Part shown: positions 2 to 64,000 of the stretch, one piece after another
Numbering within the stretch: position 1 is the first letter of the stretch
How the letters are laid out: each line of letters starts with the position of its first letter
From: Candidatus Levyibacteriota bacterium
GTDB lineage: Bacteria > Patescibacteriota > Microgenomatia > Levybacterales > UBA12049
Reading direction: 5' to 3'
Assembly: GCA_043823085.1 (NCBI GenBank)
Contig: JBDRBE010000004.1
Span: 69,510-133,509, forward strand
DNA length: 64,000 nucleotides
Program-made: the position numbers and the translations under genes
The notes under the pieces: model-generated
Told to the model about the DNA's origin: nothing
Databases searched by the model: none
Seen by the model: the letters and a program-made list of their open reading frames with translations, nothing else

Positions 2-874
2 AATGGTGTAAAAAAAGATGCAGATCCACAAAAAGTATTAAAGTCTATTCAGAATGGTTATACAGTTTTAGCGGCAGGAGATATTGGAGATTGTTGGAGT
101 AAAAACACCGCAGCTACAGAGACAGCAAAATTATTAGGTAAATTCCCTGGAATTCCCATATTAACACTTGGGGACAACAGTAATATTGATGGTACAAAAG
201 AAGATTATGAAACATGTTTTGATCCGACTTGGGGAAGATATAAAGATAGGATTTTTCCAAGCGTAGGAAATCACGATTACCATGCAAAAGGTGCGGTTCC
301 TTATTATGAATACTTTGGTGAAAAGGCAGGCGAGCCTGGTAAAGGATATTACAGTTTTAATTTGGGGAATTGGCATCTAATAGCCGTCAATACAGATATT
401 ATTGCAGATCCTTGTTCTGCAACTAGTGATATATGCAAAGGTTTTTTGGAAGAGATGGATTGGCTTAAGAAGGATTTGGAGCAGAATAAAACCGATTGCA
501 CTCTTATTTTCGGACATTATCCAAGATTCAGTTCAGGAATAACTAGCGCTACGATAGGAGTTGACCCTTTATGGAAGCTGGCATATTCCGAAAATGTTGA
601 CTTAATACTTAACGGACATGCTCATGACTATGAACGTTTCGCTCCGCAAGATCCGCAGGGAAACTTAGATTTAAAACGAGGAATTAGAGAGATCGTAGTT
701 GGAACCGGGGGAGCGGATTTAACAGGGTATGGGGATATTGCTAAAAATACCGAAATTATCACTAACCGCGTGCATGGAATTTTAAAATTAATTCTTGGAA
801 AAGGAGAATATGGATGGGAGTTTATATCAGTAGATGGAAGTTTTGTTGATAAAGGACAATCCTCGTGTCATTAG
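2..874 (+). CDS. Calcineurin-like metallophosphoesterase (5' partial; frame is open from the window start)
   Basis: Translation from nt 2 gives VLAAGDIGD...GDNSN...SVGNHDY...GHAHDYERF, the metallophosphoesterase motif set. The listed ORF 362..874 is only its TTG-delimited tail. Confidence 0.7.
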   Translation, partial: NGVKKDADPQKVLKSIQNGYTVLAAGDIGDCWSKNTAATETAKLLGKFPGIPILTLGDNSNIDGTKEDYETCFDPTWGRYKDRIFPSVGNHDYHAKGAVPYYEYFGEKAGEPGKGYYSFNLGNWHLIAVNTDIIADPCSATSDICKGFLEEMDWLKKDLEQNKTDCTLIFGHYPRFSSGITSATIGVDPLWKLAYSENVDLILNGHAHDYERFAPQDPQGNLDLKRGIREIVVGTGGADLTGYGDIAKNTEIITNRVHGILKLILGKGEYGWEFISVDGSFVDKGQSSCH

Positions 875-4291: not shown

Positions 4292-5068
4292 ATGAAAACA
4301 ATTATATTGTGCGGGGGAACAGGTTATCGGTTGAAAGAAGAAACCGAATTTAAGCCAAAACCAATGGTTTATGTTGGTAATCATCCAATTCTTTGGCACA
4401 TAATGAAGACGTATGCCCATTATGGTTACAATGAGTTTATTTTAGCACTAGGGTATAAAGCAGATTATATTAAAGATTTTTTTCTTAATCAAAAGGCATT
4501 CTCGTCAGATTTTTCTTTAGATACGAAAGATCACAAAGTCAAATATTTCCTTGAAAATAGAAGTGAAATAGACAATTTTAAAATTACCTTTGTCGATACC
4601 GGTCTGGGGACTCAAGTCGGAGAAAGAATTCTTAAATGTAAAAAATATATCCCCGAAAACGATTCTTATTTTATGGTAACTTATGGCGATGGGGTAAGTA
4701 ATATCAATATAGAAAAATTAGTAGATTTTCATAAAAAGCAGAAGACAATAGGTACAATTACTGGAATTCATCCGCATTCAAGGTTTGGGTCAATTATTGC
4801 AGATAATAACAATTTAATACGTGAATTTTCCGAAAAACCGGTTATGAACGATTGGATAAATGGAGGATACATGGTATTTAATAAGAACTTTTTTCAATAT
4901 CTTAAAGAAGGTGAAATGGAGCATCCGGGACTTACAAGACTTACTAAAAAAAAGCAGCTTTCCGTATTTAAGCATGAAGGTTTTTGGTATTCGGTAGATA
5001 CCAATAAAGAACTTGAAGAGTTAAATAAGATGTGGAATCAAGGAAACCCACTCTGGAAAATATGGTAG
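4292..5068 (+). CDS. rfbF: Glucose-1-phosphate cytidylyltransferase
   Basis: MKTIILCGGTGYRLKEETEFKPKPMVYVGNHPILWHIMKTYAHYGYNEFILALGYK is near-canonical RfbF/DdhA N-terminus. 258 aa is the typical length. Confidence 0.85.
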   Translation: MKTIILCGGTGYRLKEETEFKPKPMVYVGNHPILWHIMKTYAHYGYNEFILALGYKADYIKDFFLNQKAFSSDFSLDTKDHKVKYFLENRSEIDNFKITFVDTGLGTQVGERILKCKKYIPENDSYFMVTYGDGVSNINIEKLVDFHKKQKTIGTITGIHPHSRFGSIIADNNNLIREFSEKPVMNDWINGGYMVFNKNFFQYLKEGEMEHPGLTRLTKKKQLSVFKHEGFWYSVDTNKELEELNKMWNQGNPLWKIW

Positions 5069-8428: not shown

Positions 8429-9316
8429 ATGACTGATTATCAAGAAGGAGCTAAAGCTTTTCAAAAAGAAGTATCAGGAGAGAGAACAAACAGTGTTTAT
8501 GCATATGCGATTGGAAGAAACCCGGAAATTAAAAATACTCCATCAGATAATTTCAAGGGAATTATTTCAAGCACATTAAAAATAATAGATACTCTTGAAG
8601 AATTTGGAGAAGAAACAGCGCATAATTTAACAATTCCGCGTGCAATTGCAGATGAAATTGGATTAATATGGGATTTTTCCGGACCGGGAACTTACGATAA
8701 ACCTTTTAAAGAGGATCGATACAAAGATCTTCCGTGGTCAAAATCGATGGATCAAAAGCGTTTAAGCCATACAGCTGTTTTGGAAAGAGCAATTGTTGAA
8801 TCGATAAAAGGAAATAGTTTTAGAGGATCGCTTGAAAATATCGTTGAAACGAAACACAGATTAAAAAAAGCCATAGGAGAAGTTGGGCCATATATATTAT
8901 ATAACGGTATACCAGAAGAAAATAGTGTAGTGAAGGATGTTCTTTCGCGTGAAGGAGTTGTAATTCCGGCGGATAAAGTAATTATTCCAAATTTTAAAAT
9001 TGATAATACACTTGATCAAGTAAAATCATTCGAATGGCCAAAACACGTTGAAAAGGGTAAGGCAATCGCTCTTGTTTCACATGCTCCTCATCTGGCTCGA
9101 ATAATTGGGCTTATAAATTATTTTAACCCTTTTTCAAAAGGAACAAAAATATACCTTTTTCCTTTACCGACTCCTCAAGAAGGAAGAGAAGAGTATGCGA
9201 AGATGGAAATTAGCGGACTTTTACATAATATGTTTGACTTAGAAAAATCAAACTTAATGCCTGCATACGAATATATGATTGGTGAAAAAAAATTGCAATT
9301 TTCCAAAGAACCGTAA
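8429..9316 (+). CDS. Hypothetical protein
   Basis: 295-aa ORF, co-directional and tightly spaced. No motif recognised. Confidence 0.45.
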   Translation: MTDYQEGAKAFQKEVSGERTNSVYAYAIGRNPEIKNTPSDNFKGIISSTLKIIDTLEEFGEETAHNLTIPRAIADEIGLIWDFSGPGTYDKPFKEDRYKDLPWSKSMDQKRLSHTAVLERAIVESIKGNSFRGSLENIVETKHRLKKAIGEVGPYILYNGIPEENSVVKDVLSREGVVIPADKVIIPNFKIDNTLDQVKSFEWPKHVEKGKAIALVSHAPHLARIIGLINYFNPFSKGTKIYLFPLPTPQEGREEYAKMEISGLLHNMFDLEKSNLMPAYEYMIGEKKLQFSKEP

Positions 9317-10562: not shown

Positions 10563-11447
10563 ATGAAAGCGAATGTTATACAAAAAGAATTCCCTAATTT
10601 AAAAGTTTCTGTTTTATCAGTGGGAAAACATAAAAACAATCCTTTAAGAAATGAAGACGGATGGGTAGCAAAAGTAAATACGTTTGCAGTTATAGATGGT
10701 TCTGCTCCTCGTGTAGATTTAAGATTTGAAGGGAAAAGTAGTGCAAGATTTGCAACAGATGTGGTAAGAAAAGTTTTACTAACAACACCGCCGGATGTTA
10801 ATGGAAAAGAGTTAGTCTCAGAAATTACAACTGCTCTTAATAGAGAAATTAATAGAGAAGGCTATAGAAAGGTTATTCAAAAAAACAAAGAGGCAACTCC
10901 TGCGGCACTTTTTACAACCGCTCGAATTGTTGGAGATAAGGTTATCGTTACCGGGCTTGGGGATATTTCCTGTAGAATAAATGAGAAAGTAATTCACTCG
11001 GATCATTTCAAGTCGGAAGATTTGATGACAGAAAAAAGAATTTTGGCAATGAAAAACGCCAAAAAGAAAAATCCTTCAATTTCGGATGAAGAATTGGTTG
11101 CAATTGGCCAGAAGACAATAAAAGATGATTTAATATATCAGGTTAAAAATTACTTTAACAATTCAAATAGCGACTTAGGTCTTGGCATTATTGATGGGGA
11201 AGAAGTGCCGGAAAAATTCATAAAAGAGTACAAATATGATTTAAAAGATGTTAAAACATTGGAGTTATTTTCAGATGGCTATTATAGTTTCCCAGACTTT
11301 CCAAGTATTGATTTATGGGAAGAAAAATTTTTTCAAGGAGAAAAAGAAGATCCTTTAAGATGGAATAAATATCCGGCCGTTAAGGCAGTTCTTCCAGGTC
11401 AGTTTTCAGATGACAGAACAATTTTAATTGTTGCTTTCAATAAGTAG
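10563..11447 (+). CDS. PP2C-like (PPM fold) protein, possibly a degenerate phosphatase
   Basis: FAVIDGSAP, ARIVGDKVIVTGLGDIS and LFSDGYYS resemble PP2C motifs I, II and the C-terminal motif, but the canonical DGHGG is altered. Confidence 0.35.
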   Translation: MKANVIQKEFPNLKVSVLSVGKHKNNPLRNEDGWVAKVNTFAVIDGSAPRVDLRFEGKSSARFATDVVRKVLLTTPPDVNGKELVSEITTALNREINREGYRKVIQKNKEATPAALFTTARIVGDKVIVTGLGDISCRINEKVIHSDHFKSEDLMTEKRILAMKNAKKKNPSISDEELVAIGQKTIKDDLIYQVKNYFNNSNSDLGLGIIDGEEVPEKFIKEYKYDLKDVKTLELFSDGYYSFPDFPSIDLWEEKFFQGEKEDPLRWNKYPAVKAVLPGQFSDDRTILIVAFNK

Positions 11448-11453
11448 AAAAAA

Positions 11454-13820
11454 ATGAAGATACGATCACCTAAGATTATTTTAATAATAATAATTCTTCT
11501 TTTGACTATCATGCCTTTCTTTTGGCTTAAACCCGGCGAGATGGATTTAGGTGGCGATGGAGGCAGGCTTTACTTTTATGATCCGGTAAACCAGATTAAA
11601 AATTTGGCTTTATATAATAGGTGTGCTTTTGGTATAGGAACAATTGATTCTCCTTTTTCATACCTTCCTTTTATTGGAATACTGGCAATAATAAAGACAA
11701 TTGTTACGTCTTCGTATATTCTTATTTGTTTTCATAACGCATTAAAATTAGCTGTTGGTTTTCTTGCCGTTTATGCGATCGTAAAGCAGTTTATTGGCGG
11801 ATTTAATAAAAATAATTCCCTTGGTGTGGAACTTGCCTCAATGATTGCCGGGCTTTTTTATCTTTCCACCCCTGCGATGACGGAGAATTATGTAAAAGCT
11901 ATTGCAACTCATGATCAAGTATTTCTGAATCCTCTCATGTTTTACCTTTTATTGCGGTTTGCTCTTTCAGGAAAAATGAAATATATGTGGATTGCGCTTA
12001 TTGTAGGTCTTGTTTTTTCAGTGAGCTTTAGTTATATGGGCGCACCTTCCTTTTTTGCTTTTTACCCTCTTGCATTTATTTTTATTCTTTTCTATGGCAC
12101 TTTTATTAGGCATGTTAAGTTTCCATGGAGAAAATTACTGCTTACTTTTGTTTGGTTTTTTGGGCTGCATGCTTTTCATTTAATTCCTGAAGCTTCCGAT
12201 CTATTTACTTTTGGAAGCAATAGCAATACAAGAATGTTTAATATCGAAAGTATAACATCGCAAATCGGTTACTTTTATGCAATATTGCATATTCCAAAGA
12301 CGAGTTTTTATCTTTTCTCTTATTCCTTAACAAGATTTTTGGGACAAGTTGCCTTCGTTGTCCCTTTAATAGTTGTATTGGGATTGATATTTAATAAGAA
12401 GAAAGAAAAGACGATGCTTCTTGTTTTTGTATTCTTTTTAGTGACTTTCTTTTTTGTAACTGGGAAGGTAACGGTTGTTGGCATAAAAATTTATGAATGG
12501 TTTTTTCATGTGCCCGGCTTTTCAATGTTTCGAAATTTTTATGGGCAATGGCAATTTGTATATTATTTCTTTTATTCTCTTCTTTTTGGTTTGGCATTTT
12601 ATTCTGTGATATCTAGAATAAAGTCAAGAATCTTTTTAAAATGTCTTTTTCTGTTTCTGGTTATCTTTTTTACAATAAGCTCGTGGCAATTTATTAATGG
12701 AAGTCTTGTAAATCCATTTAGAGAAGATGCAAATGGGGTGAAAGCAGCAATTATTATGGATCCAAATTATGAAAACACGCTTAAATTTATTCGTTCAATG
12801 CCTGATGATGGAAAAATACTTGTTCTTCCTTTTAGCGATTCCTATATGCAAGTAATTCATGGATTAAATAACGGAGTCTACGTGGGACACTCGACAATTG
12901 GTCAGTTGACAGGAAAAAACGATTTTGCAGGTTATCAAGGCATTTTTCCCTATAGTGATACTTTTTGGCAATTAAGTAAAGAGAAAAACTATAAAGCGAT
13001 AAAAAAAATGTTTGGAATACTAAATATCCATTATATATTTTATAATTCTGACACAAGGATTTATGATACAGCATTTCCTGGTCGGCCATACTCGCCTAAT
13101 TATGTCCGAAAATTTATGCCTCCAGATCAGGCGGGGTATAAGGAATATATCGGAAACCTCTCGAGCGAAAAAATCTTTGAAAGCGGTTTTTATAGTGTTT
13201 ATAAGTTGGAAGATAAATCTTCGCTTCCTCATTTTTACACAGCCCAAAACATTCTTTTCTATAAAGATGATCCCAAATTGACAGGTTATGGAAAAACACT
13301 TGCCTTTTTTAAGGGAAATATTCCGGAAAGACCAGTTTATATAGAAAGTCAAAATTGCAAAAAATTGTTTAAGCAAGAGTTTTGTAGGGAAGATTCTAAT
13401 TTTCCAATGACTGATAGTCCAAAAATCCAATTCGAAAAAATTAATCCAACAAAATATAAATTAACTGTATCTAATGCAAATAACCCTTATATTCTCGTAT
13501 TCTCCGAAGCGTTTCACAGTAACTGGAAGATTTATGCCGGAGTTGCAAAAGAAAAGAATACATTCTTTGGTAAAGATATTTTTGAGACATTTAGTTTAAA
13601 CTCAATATCAAACGATAGACATTTTATTGCAAATGGTTATGCAAATGGTTGGTATATTAAACCGCAGGATTTAGGAGGAAAGCAAGAGTATGAACTTATA
13701 ATAGAAATGACAGGACAAAGAATATTCTATGTGAGTTTAATTTTTTCAGGCATTATATTCATAATCTTTGTTCTTCGGGGAATAATATTTTTTGATATAA
13801 TAAAAAAACGAAAAAAATGA
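11454..13820 (+). CDS. Polytopic membrane protein, YfhO-like architecture (putative GT-C glycosyltransferase), paralog A
   Basis: Many predicted TM helices. Conserved first-loop motif PFFWLKPGEMDLGGDGGRLYFYDP, a large extracytoplasmic domain, C-terminal NGYANGWYIKP, and a final TM anchor. Shared with 14139..17795. Confidence 0.6.
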   Translation: MKIRSPKIILIIIILLLTIMPFFWLKPGEMDLGGDGGRLYFYDPVNQIKNLALYNRCAFGIGTIDSPFSYLPFIGILAIIKTIVTSSYILICFHNALKLAVGFLAVYAIVKQFIGGFNKNNSLGVELASMIAGLFYLSTPAMTENYVKAIATHDQVFLNPLMFYLLLRFALSGKMKYMWIALIVGLVFSVSFSYMGAPSFFAFYPLAFIFILFYGTFIRHVKFPWRKLLLTFVWFFGLHAFHLIPEASDLFTFGSNSNTRMFNIESITSQIGYFYAILHIPKTSFYLFSYSLTRFLGQVAFVVPLIVVLGLIFNKKKEKTMLLVFVFFLVTFFFVTGKVTVVGIKIYEWFFHVPGFSMFRNFYGQWQFVYYFFYSLLFGLAFYSVISRIKSRIFLKCLFLFLVIFFTISSWQFINGSLVNPFREDANGVKAAIIMDPNYENTLKFIRSMPDDGKILVLPFSDSYMQVIHGLNNGVYVGHSTIGQLTGKNDFAGYQGIFPYSDTFWQLSKEKNYKAIKKMFGILNIHYIFYNSDTRIYDTAFPGRPYSPNYVRKFMPPDQAGYKEYIGNLSSEKIFESGFYSVYKLEDKSSLPHFYTAQNILFYKDDPKLTGYGKTLAFFKGNIPERPVYIESQNCKKLFKQEFCREDSNFPMTDSPKIQFEKINPTKYKLTVSNANNPYILVFSEAFHSNWKIYAGVAKEKNTFFGKDIFETFSLNSISNDRHFIANGYANGWYIKPQDLGGKQEYELIIEMTGQRIFYVSLIFSGIIFIIFVLRGIIFFDIIKKRKK

Positions 13821-49605: not shown

Positions 49606-50781
49606 ATGAGAATTGGAATTGACTGCCGTCTTTGGAATGAGTCGGGAGTGGGCCGCTATATCAGAAATCTTATTAAAAACTTACTTATTCAGGACAGTAA
49701 AAATAGTTATGTGTTGTTTGTCAATAGTTTAGATAGTGAAAATATCAAATATCAAATATCAAATATCAAATATGCAAATAAAAATTTAAAAATAATAACG
49801 ACCGACATAAGATGGCATTCTTTCAAAGAGCAATTAATTTTTCCGTCGATTTTAAATAAAGAGAATCTGGATTTGGTTCATTTTCCTTATTTTTCAGTTC
49901 CGATTTTTTATAATAAACCCTTTGTCGTAACAATTCACGATTTAATCATTAACCATTTTTCAACCGGTCTCGCCTCAACTCTATCAGCTCCTTTATATCA
50001 ATTAAAACTTCTTGGTTATAAATTTGTAATTTCACAGGCCGTAAAAAAAGCGAAAAAAGTTATTACTGTTTCAAATACTACAAAAGATGAAATTATCGAT
50101 CACTTTGGGGTCGATGATAAGAAGGTTATTGTGACGTACGAAGGCGTCGATAAGCAAAAATCAAAAATCAAAAATCAAAAATCAAAGATAGATAAACCAT
50201 ATTTTCTGTATGTTGGAAATGCATATCCGCATAAGAACCTCGAAAGATTACTTGAAGCATTTTGTTTATTTTGTCATCCTGAACTTGTTTCAGGATCTCA
50301 ATTGAACCGAGATTCTGACCTTCGTCAAAATGACACGAAATTAATTTTCGTTGGGAAGAATGATTATTTCTACGAAAGGCTAAAAAAGAGGGTTAATGAA
50401 ATGGGATTAAAGGATTCAGTTATTTTTTATGGGGAGGTAAGCGATGAAGAGTTAGTTTACCTTTACAAAAATGCAAAAGCTTTAGTTTTACCCTCTTTAA
50501 TGGAAGGGTTTGGTTTGCCGGCCCTTGAGGCAATGAGTTTGGGATGTTTAGTTTTGGCATCGGATATTCCTAGCTTTCGAGAAATTTGCCAGGACGCGGC
50601 AATTTATTTTAATCCTAACAATGTTAATGATCTGGCAAAAAAACTGAAAGAAATTTGCTTTAATGATTTAAATCATTTCAGCGATTTTATAAAGAAAGGA
50701 CGTGAAAGGGCAAGTTCATTTTCCTGGGGGAAAATGACCAAAAAAACTCTAGAAGTTTATGAAAGTTGCGGTAGTTTATGA
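49606..50781 (+). CDS. Glycosyltransferase family 4 (GT-B)
   Basis: MRIGIDCRLWNESGVGRYIRNL and MEGFGLPALEAMS. Carries (AAATATC)4-5 and (AAAAATC)4 at the same relative positions as the 40194 paralog. Confidence 0.75.
   Translation: MRIGIDCRLWNESGVGRYIRNLIKNLLIQDSKNSYVLFVNSLDSENIKYQISNIKYANKNLKIITTDIRWHSFKEQLIFPSILNKENLDLVHFPYFSVPIFYNKPFVVTIHDLIINHFSTGLASTLSAPLYQLKLLGYKFVISQAVKKAKKVITVSNTTKDEIIDHFGVDDKKVIVTYEGVDKQKSKIKNQKSKIDKPYFLYVGNAYPHKNLERLLEAFCLFCHPELVSGSQLNRDSDLRQNDTKLIFVGKNDYFYERLKKRVNEMGLKDSVIFYGEVSDEELVYLYKNAKALVLPSLMEGFGLPALEAMSLGCLVLASDIPSFREICQDAAIYFNPNNVNDLAKKLKEICFNDLNHFSDFIKKGRERASSFSWGKMTKKTLEVYESCGSL
49740..49774 (+). repeat. Tandem heptamer (AAATATC)x4 perfect, plus AAATATG
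   Basis: Read directly. Encodes NIKYQISNIKYAN. Confidence 0.9.
50156..50183 (+). repeat. Tandem heptamer (AAAAATC)x4 perfect
   Basis: Read directly. Encodes DKQKSKIKNQKSKID. Confidence 0.9.
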
Positions 50782-51943
50782 CAGAGTTAATAAGTGGGGA
50801 GGGGCCGAGAGGGTGCTTTTGGCACTTCATGAGTTATTTCCGGAAGCGCCGCTTTATACTTCTGTTTATAATTCAAAGACCGCACCTTGGGCAAAAGTTT
50901 TTCCAAAAGTAATTTTTTCATTTCTTCAAAAATTTCCATTTGCTACGCGTCATGAACTGTATGTCATGTTAATGCCTTTGGCTTTTGAAAAATTTTCCGC
51001 CAAAGGCGGATTCGATGAATTTGACTTGGTAATTTCGGTGACAAGTGAGGCGGCAAAAGGAATTATCACAAAAGAAGGAACTTTTCATCTTTGTTATTGT
51101 TTGACTCCGACTCGCTATCTCTGGAGCGGATATGAGGAATATTTTAAGAATTCATTGTTAAGATTTTTAGCAAAACCCGCAGTTTTTTATTTGCGAAGAT
51201 GGGATAAAATCGCAGCAAAAAGGCCGGATGCATATGTTGCGATTTCGAAAGAAGTGCAAAAAAGAATTAAAAAATATTATAAAAGGGAATCCACAGTAAT
51301 TTATCCTCCGTTAGCATTGCTTGGCGCTGAGGTCGTCCTTGCGGGTCCTGCCGCTCGTCAGCCCCACGCGTTTCCCACTGCGCTAACAAGCGCGGGGCCC
51401 CCGCGTGGTGCCCCCCGACTCGCGTCACCCGCAATGGACTCCCCGCGCCATAGCTATTTTCTTATTGTTTCAAGGCTAGTTCCGTACAAAAGGATTGATA
51501 TCGCAGTTGAGGCTTTTAACGAACTTGGTTTGCCGCTTAAAATTATTGGAATAGGATCTCAAGAAGCTAAATTAAAAAGAATGGCAAAAAGGAATATAGA
51601 ATTTTTAGGCAACTTGACGGATATAGAGCTCGTAAGCTATTATAAAAATTGTCGTGCTCTAATTTTTCCGGGGATTGAAGATTTTGGGCTGACGATAATT
51701 GAAGCGCAGAGTTTTGGAAAACCGGTCATTGCTTTTGCAAGTGGCGGAGCACGAGAAATAATAGTTGAGGGAAAAACCGGAGAATTTTTCTTCCCTCAAA
51801 CAAAAGCAGCGCTTGTTAAGAAACTAAAAGGGTTTCGCGATGATAAATACAAGGGTGAGGACTGTCTGAATCAGGCAAATAAATTTAATAAAAAAATTTT
51901 CAAAGAAAGAATATTGAAATTTATTAAGAGTAAGATAAAATAA
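50759..51943 (+). CDS. Glycosyltransferase family 4 (GT-B) carrying an in-frame GC-rich palindromic insertion
   Basis: MKVAVVYDRVNKWGGAERVL and ..YFLIVSRLVPYKRIDIAVEAF..GIEDFGLTIIEAQSFGKPVI. A roughly 45-aa Ala/Pro/Arg-rich segment replaces the usual short interdomain linker. Confidence 0.7.
   Translation: MKVAVVYDRVNKWGGAERVLLALHELFPEAPLYTSVYNSKTAPWAKVFPKVIFSFLQKFPFATRHELYVMLMPLAFEKFSAKGGFDEFDLVISVTSEAAKGIITKEGTFHLCYCLTPTRYLWSGYEEYFKNSLLRFLAKPAVFYLRRWDKIAAKRPDAYVAISKEVQKRIKKYYKRESTVIYPPLALLGAEVVLAGPAARQPHAFPTALTSAGPPRGAPRLASPAMDSPRHSYFLIVSRLVPYKRIDIAVEAFNELGLPLKIIGIGSQEAKLKRMAKRNIEFLGNLTDIELVSYYKNCRALIFPGIEDFGLTIIEAQSFGKPVIAFASGGAREIIVEGKTGEFFFPQTKAALVKKLKGFRDDKYKGEDCLNQANKFNKKIFKERILKFIKSKIK
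51321..51450 (+). repeat. GC-rich palindromic element (about 130 nt) inserted in-frame inside the GT4 gene
   Basis: Sharp local GC jump in an AT-rich gene. Nested inverted repeats ccacgcg/cgcgtgg, gcgcTAACAAgcgc and gcggggCccccgc. Confidence 0.6.
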
Positions 51944-62699: not shown

Positions 62700-63166
62700 T
62701 TTTAATGATAAGCAGTTTTTTTTAGAGCTTGCAGTTCAGTTGGAAGCGAAGCGTTCTGGTAATTAACATCTTCTTGAAGACTTAAAAAGGCAAATTTTCA
62801 TTTAGGTGCGTTTTAAGAAATTAGCTTTGGAAGTAGGGGATGACTTATAAATTCCCGCATTTTTGAGACACAGGAATTAAACTGCTTTATTCTGGATTAT
62901 CAAATCAATTTCCCCTAGGATCGTCCCCACAGCTCCACAGCTTCAAGGGTATTTGAAGAACTGCGTTATTCCCTTGTTTCGTTGTTTCATGGCCCCAGTG
63001 TCTCCAGTGTCTCTAGTGGCCCTAGTCGCTCCAAGATCCCAAAGGCCCAAAGGCCCCAGGTTCCAAGGCCAGGCTCCTTCGGATTTAATCCTCAGGATCT
63101 ATGACTTTCGTGTGTAGATATGCTTAGAACTGTCCGTACAAAAACGGATGGTGGTTTTTGGGGTAT

Positions 63167-63222: not shown

Positions 63223-64000
63223 ATGTGGCAAGATATTAAAAATATATATCATCTTTTTAATGCTGTTTTGGCAAATGGTTTATATGGGTTTCCGTCCAGG
63301 AAATTGACCGTAATTGGGGTTACAGGGACAGACGGAAAGACCACAACTGTTAATTTAATTTATCATATTCTTCAAAAAGCAGGACGCCATGCTTCGATGA
63401 TTTCTTCAATTGGCGCAATTATTAATGGAAAAGCATCAGACATTGGTTTTCACGTAACTACGCCGTCTCCCTGGAGTCTGCAAAAATTTATTAAGAAAGC
63501 CAAAGGTTTTTTGGTTCTTGAAGTTACTTCGCATGCGCTTGATCAACACAGAGTTTGGGGGATAAAGTTTGATGTTGGAGTTTTGACAAATGTTACGCAT
63601 GAGCACCTAGATTACCACAAAACATATGAAAACTACGTCAGAACTAAATCTAGGCTGTTTGGGATGGCAAAAAAAGCAGTTATTAATAGAGATGATAAGT
63701 CGTTCAAAGCTCCCGCCTTCGCCCCTTCGACTCCGCTCAGGGCTTCGGCGGGCAAGCAAAATTCAAAGCTAATAACTTATGGCATGAGTAAGAGTGCGGA
63801 TTTAAACCCTCAAAATTTCCCTTTTGAGACAAAATTGCTTGGAGAGTTCAACCGGTATAATATTTTGGCTGCAGTTGGGGCGTGTAAAGCCTTAGGTTTA
63901 AGCGATAAAGAGATAAGAGAGGGAATTGAAGGTTTTGAAGCGCCAAAAGGAAGAGGAGAAATAGTTTATGAAAATAGTTTTTATGTGATGATAGATTTTG
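63223..64000 (+). CDS. murE: Mur ligase (UDP-N-acetylmuramoyl-tripeptide synthetase MurE-like), 3' partial, with an internal GC-rich insert
   Basis: VIGVTGTDGKTTT P-loop and LTNVTHEHLDYH. Open to the window end. Absent from the ORF track because it has no stop. Confidence 0.75.
   Translation, partial: MWQDIKNIYHLFNAVLANGLYGFPSRKLTVIGVTGTDGKTTTVNLIYHILQKAGRHASMISSIGAIINGKASDIGFHVTTPSPWSLQKFIKKAKGFLVLEVTSHALDQHRVWGIKFDVGVLTNVTHEHLDYHKTYENYVRTKSRLFGMAKKAVINRDDKSFKAPAFAPSTPLRASAGKQNSKLITYGMSKSADLNPQNFPFETKLLGEFNRYNILAAVGACKALGLSDKEIREGIEGFEAPKGRGEIVYENSFYVMIDF
63722..63771 (+). repeat. GC-rich palindromic 50-nt insert inside murE, flanked by the 9-nt direct repeat TTCAAAGCT
   Basis: cccgcc...ggcggg terminal inverted repeats. 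Direct repeats at 63713-63721 and 63772-63780. Encodes the Ala/Pro-rich APAFAPSTPLRASAGKQ. Confidence 0.5.

Follow-up and report, generated by a model that had tools for sequence, protein, structure and literature searches.

A palindromic repeat family with a conserved bulged base, translated in frame in the hinge of a Levyibacteriota glycosyltransferase and present in genomes of two phyla

A 64,000-nt stretch of Candidatus Levyibacteriota DNA (contig JBDRBE010000004.1, positions 69,510 to 133,509, forward strand; hereafter the window) contains a gene for a GT4-family glycosyltransferase of 394 aa (window positions 50759..51943, + strand, identified from the open reading frame (ORF) and its Pfam domains) that is interrupted by a block of unusually high guanine-plus-cytosine (GC) content. 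We found that this block is probably a copy of a non-autonomous, hairpin-forming repeat element that lies in frame in a tolerant hinge of the GT4 protein and is read through. The element belongs to a family of palindromic repeats that can lie in frame within genes; its members occur in more than one phylum and share a conserved bulged base and stems that covary. This family was previously uncatalogued, and its folded core is absent from Rfam and from the literature that we searched.

The composite hairpin in the GT4 gene

The window is AT-rich (33% GC, with a mean of 0.33 ± 0.07 in 60-nt windows), and within the GT4 gene the GC content of 100-nt windows climbs from ~0.35 to 0.64-0.75 over positions 51300-51450. 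The 60-nt GC content peaks at 0.82 in this block, the sole island that strong in 64 kb. Folding placed positions 51319-51454 in a single long imperfect hairpin, with a minimum free energy (MFE) of -72.7 kcal/mol on the + strand (z = -5.8) and -82.6 kcal/mol on the - strand (z = -6.2); none of 200 shuffled sequences matched its MFE. No tRNA or Rfam family was detected anywhere in the 64-kb window.

In-frame translation of the hairpin gives 44 residues (188-231, LGAEVVLAGPAARQPHAFPTALTSAGPPRGAPRLASPAMDSPRH), rich in Ala, Pro, Gly and Arg, that fall between the two Pfam domains of the protein, Glyco_transf_4 (residues 13-184) and Glycos_transf_1 (residues 233-374). The opposite strand of the GC-rich segment is also open. 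In an AlphaFold model of the GT4 protein built from 51 orthologs (mean predicted local distance difference test (pLDDT) score 86, predicted template modelling score 0.84), both domains were confident, and residues ~190-230 had a pLDDT below 50 and were nearly all coil, placed between the N domain and a strand at 234-237. The insert is thus predicted to form a disordered interdomain loop at the GT4 domain junction, and read-through would yield peptides such as QPHAFPTALTSAGPPR.

Comparison with other loci shows that the block of ~130 nt is a composite, in which a 92-nt element (51341..51432, + strand) sits inside an outer stem common to orthologs. At locus L155, an unrelated gene contains a copy whose 86% identity to the window covers exactly 51341-51432; outside it the two loci have no sequence in common. 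Because the identity is confined to these positions, the unit size is fixed at 92 nt and the outer stem of the window is not part of the unit. The composite hairpin as a whole (51319..51454, +), translated as residues ~188-231, is delimited by composition, by its folds and by the low pLDDT. The 5' arm of the outer stem (GCTTGGCGCTGAGGTCGTCCTT, 51319..51340, +) also occurs in the orthologs L001, L013 and L252, and the L155 similarity ends at 51341; the 3' arm (AATGGACTCCCCGCGCCATAGC, 51433..51454, +) was placed from the fold and the ortholog comparison.

Within the unit, which scores 57.4 bits with a covariance model of the family, the + strand reads as follows. The conserved 5' motif CGGGTCCTGCC (51342..51352) has a pairing scheme taken from the family consensus: the P1 helix CGGGU, a 3-nt bulge CCU, a G-C pair, a C.U mismatch and a C-G pair. 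The same motif occurs independently in L006 and L029, and in L011 with one substitution. It is followed by the 5' arm of the covarying helix P2 (GCTCGTC, 51353..51359) and by a variable apex (51360..51416) made up of AGCCCC, nested stems (51364-70/51402-08 and 51378-84/51389-95) and a C-rich 3' bulge (51411-16). The 3' arm of P2 (GACTCGC, 51417..51423) and the conserved 3' motif GTCACCCG (51424..51431), which closes P1 and was recognized by family comparison, complete the element.

The stretch between the anchors VIYPP and YFLIVSRLVPYKR ranges from ~10 to ~70 residues in 120 protein orthologs. In DNA from 80 species-level genomes the linker between the anchors measures 30-198 nt, in every case divisible by three, and GT4 reads in one frame across its N and C halves in 80/80 loci at any linker length. 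The GC-rich segment is missing from most of the 120 protein and 80 DNA orthologs, and the minimal linker is ~10 aa of normal composition. Most orthologs have linkers of 30-45 nt, which are of ordinary composition and show no fold; linkers above 100 nt are mostly GC-enriched and well folded. Judged from these alignments, the GC-rich block is an insertion at a hypervariable hotspot.

Several unrelated hairpin types use the hinge in different orthologs, and the GT4 hinge is thereby a general hotspot that takes up hairpin inserts other than the element studied here. In two comparisons (L062 with L074, and the window with L001 and L013) the same outer stem encloses a differing interior. On a rough neighbour-joining tree of the flanking protein, built without support values, the element-bearing orthologs are scattered, and L001, the nearest tree neighbour of the window, has the outer stem only. 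We infer that the outer stem is older than the insertion. Other recurrent, apparently palindrome-derived hinge inserts were seen among the orthologs (P0002-P0120; L001-L080), namely 'DGRRWKIEDSNLKMEDRR..STFKN..PSTFYHPS', 'AFSSLASSVQLKNKKLNANKLDAKRS' and 'ARQPRVSDDARLQNSKNQQL..SSSES'. An apparent extra segment of ~500 nt in many GT4 orthologs (such as L010, L015 and L024, with spans of ~1600 nt) was rejected as an insert; it arose from joined matches that include a neighbouring paralogous GT4 gene.

The extreme jump in composition, from 33% to 82% GC, could be taken to mean that assembly or binning had spliced a fragment of a high-GC organism into an AT-rich contig, particularly as high-GC relatives of the element occur in Solirubrobacterales. 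We find this barely credible. The reading frame runs through the junctions, as does a hairpin with outer arms of host composition, and nothing foreign is present beyond the 92 nt. The encoded protein is 100% identical to an NCBI protein from a Candidatus Levyibacteriota metagenome-assembled genome and is recorded in two sources, NCBI and Logan. Related elements also occupy the same codon position in independent assemblies of other species.

Compactness, strong structure and a position at a domain boundary would likewise be expected of an intervening sequence that is lost from the transcript or the protein (a mini-intron, an intein or a segment that is bypassed), and introns are a known feature of rRNA and tRNA genes in Patescibacteria (PMC13011429). 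However, the frame and the openness of the linker are kept in all 80 orthologous loci, which would be needless if the segment were spliced or bypassed. At 92-136 nt it is too small for a group I or II intron and matches no ribozyme or intron family, and the 44-aa insert is predicted to be a disordered coil and contains no intein blocks. We therefore give this explanation next to no weight.

The initial annotation of this DNA had described an inserted GC-rich element of ~130 nt with several perfect inverted repeats, three of which it quoted, translated in frame as 45 aa at the interdomain linker. The contrast in composition, the strong folding signal on both strands and the absence from most orthologs all bear this description out, and all three repeats were located: CCACGCG (51364-70) with CGCGTGG (51402-08), GCGC-TAACAA-GCGC (51380-93) and CGCGGGG-C-CCCCGCG (51391-51405). 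The latter two overlap, and therefore cannot form simultaneously. The position of the segment at the junction agrees with both Pfam and the AlphaFold model, and its length is 44 aa; its treatment as a single unit gives way to a 92-nt element within an outer stem that orthologs share. The proposed check for further copies also came out positive, with the 86%-identical unit at L155 in a DUF2298 gene and with relatives that are intergenic or lie in frame in at least eight other protein families.

Some neighbouring features of the window deserve mention. Milder GC islands lie near the window end, at 62988-63087 and 63689-63773 (60-nt GC up to 0.65-0.67). The upstream GT4 gene (49606-50781) carries another, different short in-frame hairpin at 50275-50297 (CATCCTGAActtgtTTCAGGATC, with a perfect 8-bp stem), read as 'HPELVSGS' and followed by 'QLNRDSDLRQNDTK' in a loop of the C-terminal domain. 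This hairpin occurs once in the window, and one more match to its stem pattern was found in L003 (9327-9347). Residues ~45-60 of the same upstream protein (window ~49735-49790) contain the peptide 'NIKYQISNIKY', of which 'NIKYQISNI' recurs in the GT4 hinge of L069; strings like 'KYQISN', 'KYKIQNT' and 'KFEIRN' occur in many ortholog linkers and in the L155 protein. From their sequences, these peptides suggest that at least one further, AT-rich repeat family is translated in frame in these genomes.

A folded core shared by about 90 copies

A blastn-short search returned an 18-nt exact match at L029, in intergenic DNA (between a stop codon and the next start) 5 kb from the L029 GT4 gene. The window, this intergenic copy and the GT4 linkers of L029, L006 and L011 share GGGTCCTRCC ... 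GTCACCC, and the five copies fold alike with compensatory changes between them. The base of the family is CGGGUCCUGCC, followed by covarying helices with a variable apex and then GUCACCCG, over a length of ~75-110 nt. A tightened pattern built on this base matched at least 120 metagenome loci on contigs of 35-76% GC. Approximately 90 of these loci form the hairpin architecture of the element, and the rest fit the expected chance background; a covariance model finds 89 copies in the metagenome loci.

The search pattern required 19 motif bases, which are invariant among the metagenome copies by construction; the helices, the additional conserved blocks and the architecture were not imposed by it. 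The consensus consists of P1 (variable pairs and CGGGU/ACCCG), the CCU bulge, a G-C pair, the C.U mismatch, a C-G pair and a covarying P2 of 7 bp. Beyond P2, AGCCCC ... GGGGCNCCCC and often GUGCUCGC ... UGCGCGC flank the variable apex, which is GC-rich in the window copy and AT-rich in many copies of AT-rich hosts. In 32 diverse copies 90.8% of the cells in the consensus helices were paired, as against 34-50% when the partners were slid, and cells in which both bases had changed numbered 101, as against 33 ± 4.5 in shuffles.

Searches of existing collections did not retrieve the family. Among the 4227 families of Rfam 15, there was no match for the window copy at E values up to 10, nor for 20 low-GC and 9 high-GC loci with canonical copies, nor for the whole window. 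A literature search with the 10-mer of the motif returned unrelated primers only, and the literature that we searched on elements like those of Rickettsia in bacteria of the candidate phyla radiation (CPR), on in-frame miniature inverted-repeat transposable elements (MITEs) and on repetitive extragenic palindromic (REP) sequences in Solirubrobacterales does not describe it. On viral contigs a loose form of the motif gave 51 matches, all attributable to chance and none of them a GC-rich hairpin in an AT-rich context; this search gave no evidence that phages carry the element. A blastn search of the PLSDB plasmids with a canonical copy found no match.

These copies bear on whether the block is instead a native, vertically inherited linker that is GC-rich and self-complementary, perhaps grown by template-switch extension of a palindrome. 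Related hairpins do occupy the same site in L252, L029, L006 and L011, L252 shares the outer stem as well, and pairs of the L062/L074 type show hairpins enlarging from the inside. A native linker is nevertheless very unlikely, given that the 92-nt unit recurs at L155 in an unrelated gene of another genome with unrelated flanks, that a copy is intergenic 5 kb from the L029 GT4 gene, that ~90 copies of the family lie in other genes and phyla, and that most orthologs have the short linker of normal composition.

Hosts, constraint and mode of spread

Among 34 copies on contigs with a GC content up to 51%, ~28 fall between genes and ~6 within long ORFs. The intergenic copies are often only 5-30 nt from the flanking genes, and relative to the upstream gene ~15 are in sense orientation and ~4 in antisense. 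The neighbours of copies are housekeeping genes, such as nadBAC, mraZ-rsmH, recF and GT4. Among the copies inside genes, that of L155 (on a 35% GC contig) is read in frame within a gene for a DUF2298 membrane protein and is oriented opposite to that gene. Pfam confirms this host and, as further in-frame hosts, ArgRS, the CCA-adding enzyme, TatD, NadB (with the copy between its two domains), MnmA (with two copies in the gene) and the E2 acyltransferase of 2-oxoacid dehydrogenase. The E2 gene carries two copies in opposite orientation, one in each linker flanking the E3-binding domain. Among E2 orthologs at least 80% identical, each of these linker copies may be present, absent, replaced or internally frame-shifted, which indicates recent turnover. 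The host of the E2 copies belongs to Solirubrobacterales (Actinomycetota) and that of the TatD copy to Candidatus Saccharimonadales; the family is therefore not lineage-specific and spans Patescibacteria and Actinomycetota.

Several arrangements of copies were seen in passing. The Ala/Pro-rich E2 linkers of Solirubrobacterales are largely made of the element (L208 913-1264, L222 3540-3924 and L224 1424-1811). In L232, a 37% GC contig, three copies lie within a nadB-nadA-nadC cluster of ~3 kb (9006-9112, 11358-11431 and 12074-12147): one in nadB, one between genes, and one, reversed in orientation, that keeps the frame of nadC, a gene identified by context only. The intergenic and nadC copies are near-identical short variants of 74 nt. 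Inverted pairs of copies, convergent or divergent and ~30-220 nt apart, are frequent in both coding and non-coding DNA and are reminiscent of REP dimers. Examples are L226 (117-201 (+) / 391-485 (-), 190 nt apart and upstream of mraZ), L218 (4146-4253 / 4350-4469) and L201 (590-674 / 701-792).

The fold of the strands and the flanks of the copies bear on the way in which the element may move. In P2, with the motif strand as written, the ~90 copies hold 42 A.C and 16 G.U pairs, which are spread over all positions of the helix (p ~0.001; 37 and 15 after dereplication). This excess of A.C over G.U means that the complementary strand is the better folder, which argues against selection for an mRNA fold in sense copies such as that of the window and is compatible with recognition of single-stranded DNA. 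The mismatches U.C and C.U, which are G.A or A.G on the other strand, are also frequent in P2. In 28% of copies the flanks add 4 bp or more to the stem, compared with 4% in controls. Such stem-extending flanks fit insertion into palindromes or hairpin tips, as the anatomy of the window suggests. Direct repeats of at least 6 nt flank 7 copies, where 1.3 are expected, and only 3 are convincing. In L141, L196 and L215, direct repeats of 6-7 nt (ATTCTG, AATGTAT and GTTTTG) lie on either side of the conserved core, 4-9 nt away from it, and could mark target duplications in a few young copies whose unit is slightly longer.

We propose that the element spreads at the DNA level in a structure-specific manner. 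A putative protein would recognize the conserved bulged base of a folded single strand, probably the one complementary to the motif as written, and would place copies into palindromes or hairpin tips without regular target duplication, by a chemistry resembling that of REP sequences and the REP-associated tyrosine transposase (RAYT), of IS200/IS605 or of integron attC sites. In the window, the copy caps a hairpin-forming stem in the hypervariable hinge that joins the two Rossmann-like halves of GT4. Within genes, only in-frame, stop-free insertions in flexible linkers would survive selection. GC richness is helpful here because stop codons are then rare in every frame; with a stop-poor element, a length that keeps the frame and a tolerant hinge, the gene survives and the element is translated as a disordered loop.

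Several observations weigh against mobility of this kind. The GT4 ortholog P0099, encoded by L252, is 64.5% identical to the window protein and has the same nested arrangement (50.5 bits with the covariance model) around an unrelated apex. Identity between the two hairpin bases is 30/32 on the 5' side, as counted from the alignment, and 20/22 on the 3' side, or 93% overall. Third-codon positions of the surrounding gene are only 43-46% identical, and synonymous sites are saturated. Neutrally decaying selfish DNA would not show such conservation of the base, which is therefore either under selection at the nucleotide level or recently renewed. Covariation as strong as this, and spanning phyla, would more typically mark a functional structured nucleic acid. 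The A.C/G.U asymmetry could stem from strand-biased mutation. Of 90 copies, 45 have no flanking direct repeat, and the distribution of repeats is near that of the control. No transposase or recombinase was noticed beside any copy examined (up to 20 kb per genome). Finally, copies are very scarce in the host lineage. Across 1.39 Mb (the window and 80 related loci) the covariance model detects 5, of which 4 are at the GT4 hinge, and neither the pattern nor the model finds a second copy in the 64-kb window. Such a low number would be expected of a hotspot, or of an inherited element that is maintained, no less than of active mobility.

These observations raise the possibility that the hairpin is a functional structured motif kept by selection, either an RNA element of the transcript or a DNA site for a host factor. 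It might be an mRNA stabilizer, an intergenic insulator or a ribosome-slowing hairpin at a domain boundary that aids folding of the first domain. The strong covariation, the fixed loop nucleotides, the spread of hosts over 35-76% GC and the conserved base of L252 would all suit such a role, as would the mostly sense copies a few nucleotides from gene ends and the in-frame copies at domain boundaries of GT4, E2 and NadB. However, no Rfam family matches even at permissive thresholds, and no gene family is consistently associated with the element. Both orientations are used: the two copies of one E2 gene differ in orientation, and those in L155 and nadC are reversed. According to the wobble statistics, the strand that is complementary to the mRNA is the favoured folder in sense copies. 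The presence or absence of copies among near-identical E2 orthologs, and the lack of one in most GT4 orthologs, indicate that the host proteins do not require the element. We regard a functional motif as unlikely, although it is the strongest competitor of the repeat element read through in the GT4 hinge.

A broader form of the repeat-element reading is possible, and we put it forward tentatively. The family might represent a class of single-strand recombination or transposition site that resembles attC with a different core and is common to Solirubrobacterales and AT-rich Patescibacteria. Its base would be kept by a protein acting in trans, GC-rich copies of the Levyibacteriota type would be recent imports from high-GC genomes, and the family would remodel the linkers of essential enzymes, such as the Ala/Pro linkers of E2 and the hinge of GT4. 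The known axis between Saccharibacteria epibionts and their actinobacterial hosts is a possible route for such imports.

The family offers a concrete route for creating and remodelling interdomain linkers, including the classic Ala/Pro linkers of 2-oxoacid dehydrogenase E2. It also gives annotators a model for odd GC-rich, low-complexity protein inserts in metagenome-assembled genomes. The element is a possible tracer of DNA exchange between ultra-small and high-GC bacteria, and its conserved bulged base and covarying stems point to a putative protein partner.

Comparison with known systems

GC-rich hairpins in an AT-rich genome are familiar from the GC clusters of yeast mitochondria. Coding palindromes have been described in Nematomorpha, also in organellar DNA (PMC6649704). 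Like the present element, these are GC-rich or perfect hairpins tolerated in frame in AT-rich coding sequence; unlike it, they are organellar, and they are unrelated to it in sequence and hosts.

In-frame MITEs of bacteria include Correia, Nezha and small mobile sequences of enterobacteria (PMC3184786). The element resembles them in being small, non-autonomous and hairpin-forming, with an occasional extension of an ORF. It probably differs from a classical MITE in lacking long terminal inverted repeats: only CGGGT/ACCCG (5 bases) is perfectly paired before the conserved asymmetry begins. A target-site duplication of fixed length was not evident among the 90 copies, and a cognate insertion sequence did not turn up, although none was searched for genome-wide.

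Integron attC sites are structure-specific, single-strand recombination sites whose variable terminal structure ranges from 3 to more than 80 nt (PMC7439510). The likeness is one of architecture only: P1 forms a short paired box at the base, the 3-nt bulge and the mismatch provide extrahelical bases that break the symmetry, and the variable, covarying stem P2 leads to a variable terminus. Like attC sites, copies lie just 3' of ORFs and mostly in sense orientation, with signs that the bottom strand is the folded one. Membership among attC sites was rejected, as the R''/R' consensus (RYYYAAC / GTTRRRY) is absent and the ends CGGGTCCTGCC and GTCACCCG contain no AAC/GTT pair. The neighbours are housekeeping genes rather than cassette arrays, copies lie in frame inside essential genes, and no integrase was seen near the copies in the up to 20 kb inspected per genome.

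The GTAG- and CGTC-tagged REP sequences and REPINs (REP doublets forming hairpins) are built of units of 20-40 bp with stems of 5-13 bp, short loops and an invariant GTAG or CGTC at the terminus (Di Nocera et al. 2013, PMC3733652). Some REPs lie inside palindromic targets, and some are intragenic and translated (PMC3733652). The element shares with them palindromes wedged between genes and sometimes translated, an apparent lack of regular target duplication and an assumed recognition as a single strand, and most copies contain CGTC within the 3' motif (GCGTCACCC). This tag made the CGTC-REPs a candidate family, which was ruled out by the unit size of 75-110 nt and by the stem and loop definition. 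The element is a single hairpin with a conserved 3-nt bulge and mismatch, its fixed ends are CGGGTCCTGCC and GTCACCCG rather than a terminal tag, and the base before GTC varies, so that CAGTC, GTGTC, ACGTC and CCGTC also occur. No RAYT was noticed beside the copies examined, within up to 20 kb around each. REP families are also lineage-specific, whereas the core of the element is common to different phyla.

The closest parallel in behaviour is provided by the Rickettsia palindromic elements (RPEs), reportedly described by Ogata and colleagues in 2000. RPEs are also discussed in PMC3733652. In both cases a hairpin repeat of ~100 nt (here a 92-nt unit within a 136-nt hairpin, in the RPE range of ~100-150 bp) occurs in intergenic DNA and in frame in unrelated housekeeping genes, where it leaves the ORF intact and adds a peptide at a tolerant surface or linker. 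Genes for GT4, DUF2298, E2, ArgRS, the CCA-adding enzyme, NadB, TatD and MnmA, and NadC by context, carry such in-frame insertions here. This comparison is one of behaviour and description. The hosts are Patescibacteria and Actinomycetota (Levyibacteriota, Saccharimonadales and Solirubrobacterales) rather than the Rickettsia or Wolbachia of RPEs, and what defines the element across phyla is not its overall sequence but a conserved bulged base with covarying stems and a free apex. In the window lineage it is GC-rich in an AT-rich genome and concentrated at a hotspot.

The initial annotation had likened the block to RPEs, as selfish hairpin DNA colonizing coding sequence. The in-frame hairpin and the intact ORF support the likeness. 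The few copies in the 1.39 Mb, most of them at the GT4 site, suggest a low-copy hotspot element in this lineage instead of a genome-wide swarm in the style of Rickettsia, and because the hairpin base is conserved far beyond neutral expectation, 'selfish' is here an inference only. Textbooks have treated palindromic 'selfish DNA' inserted in frame as a curiosity of Rickettsia, and the same behaviour now appears in CPR bacteria and in soil Actinomycetota.

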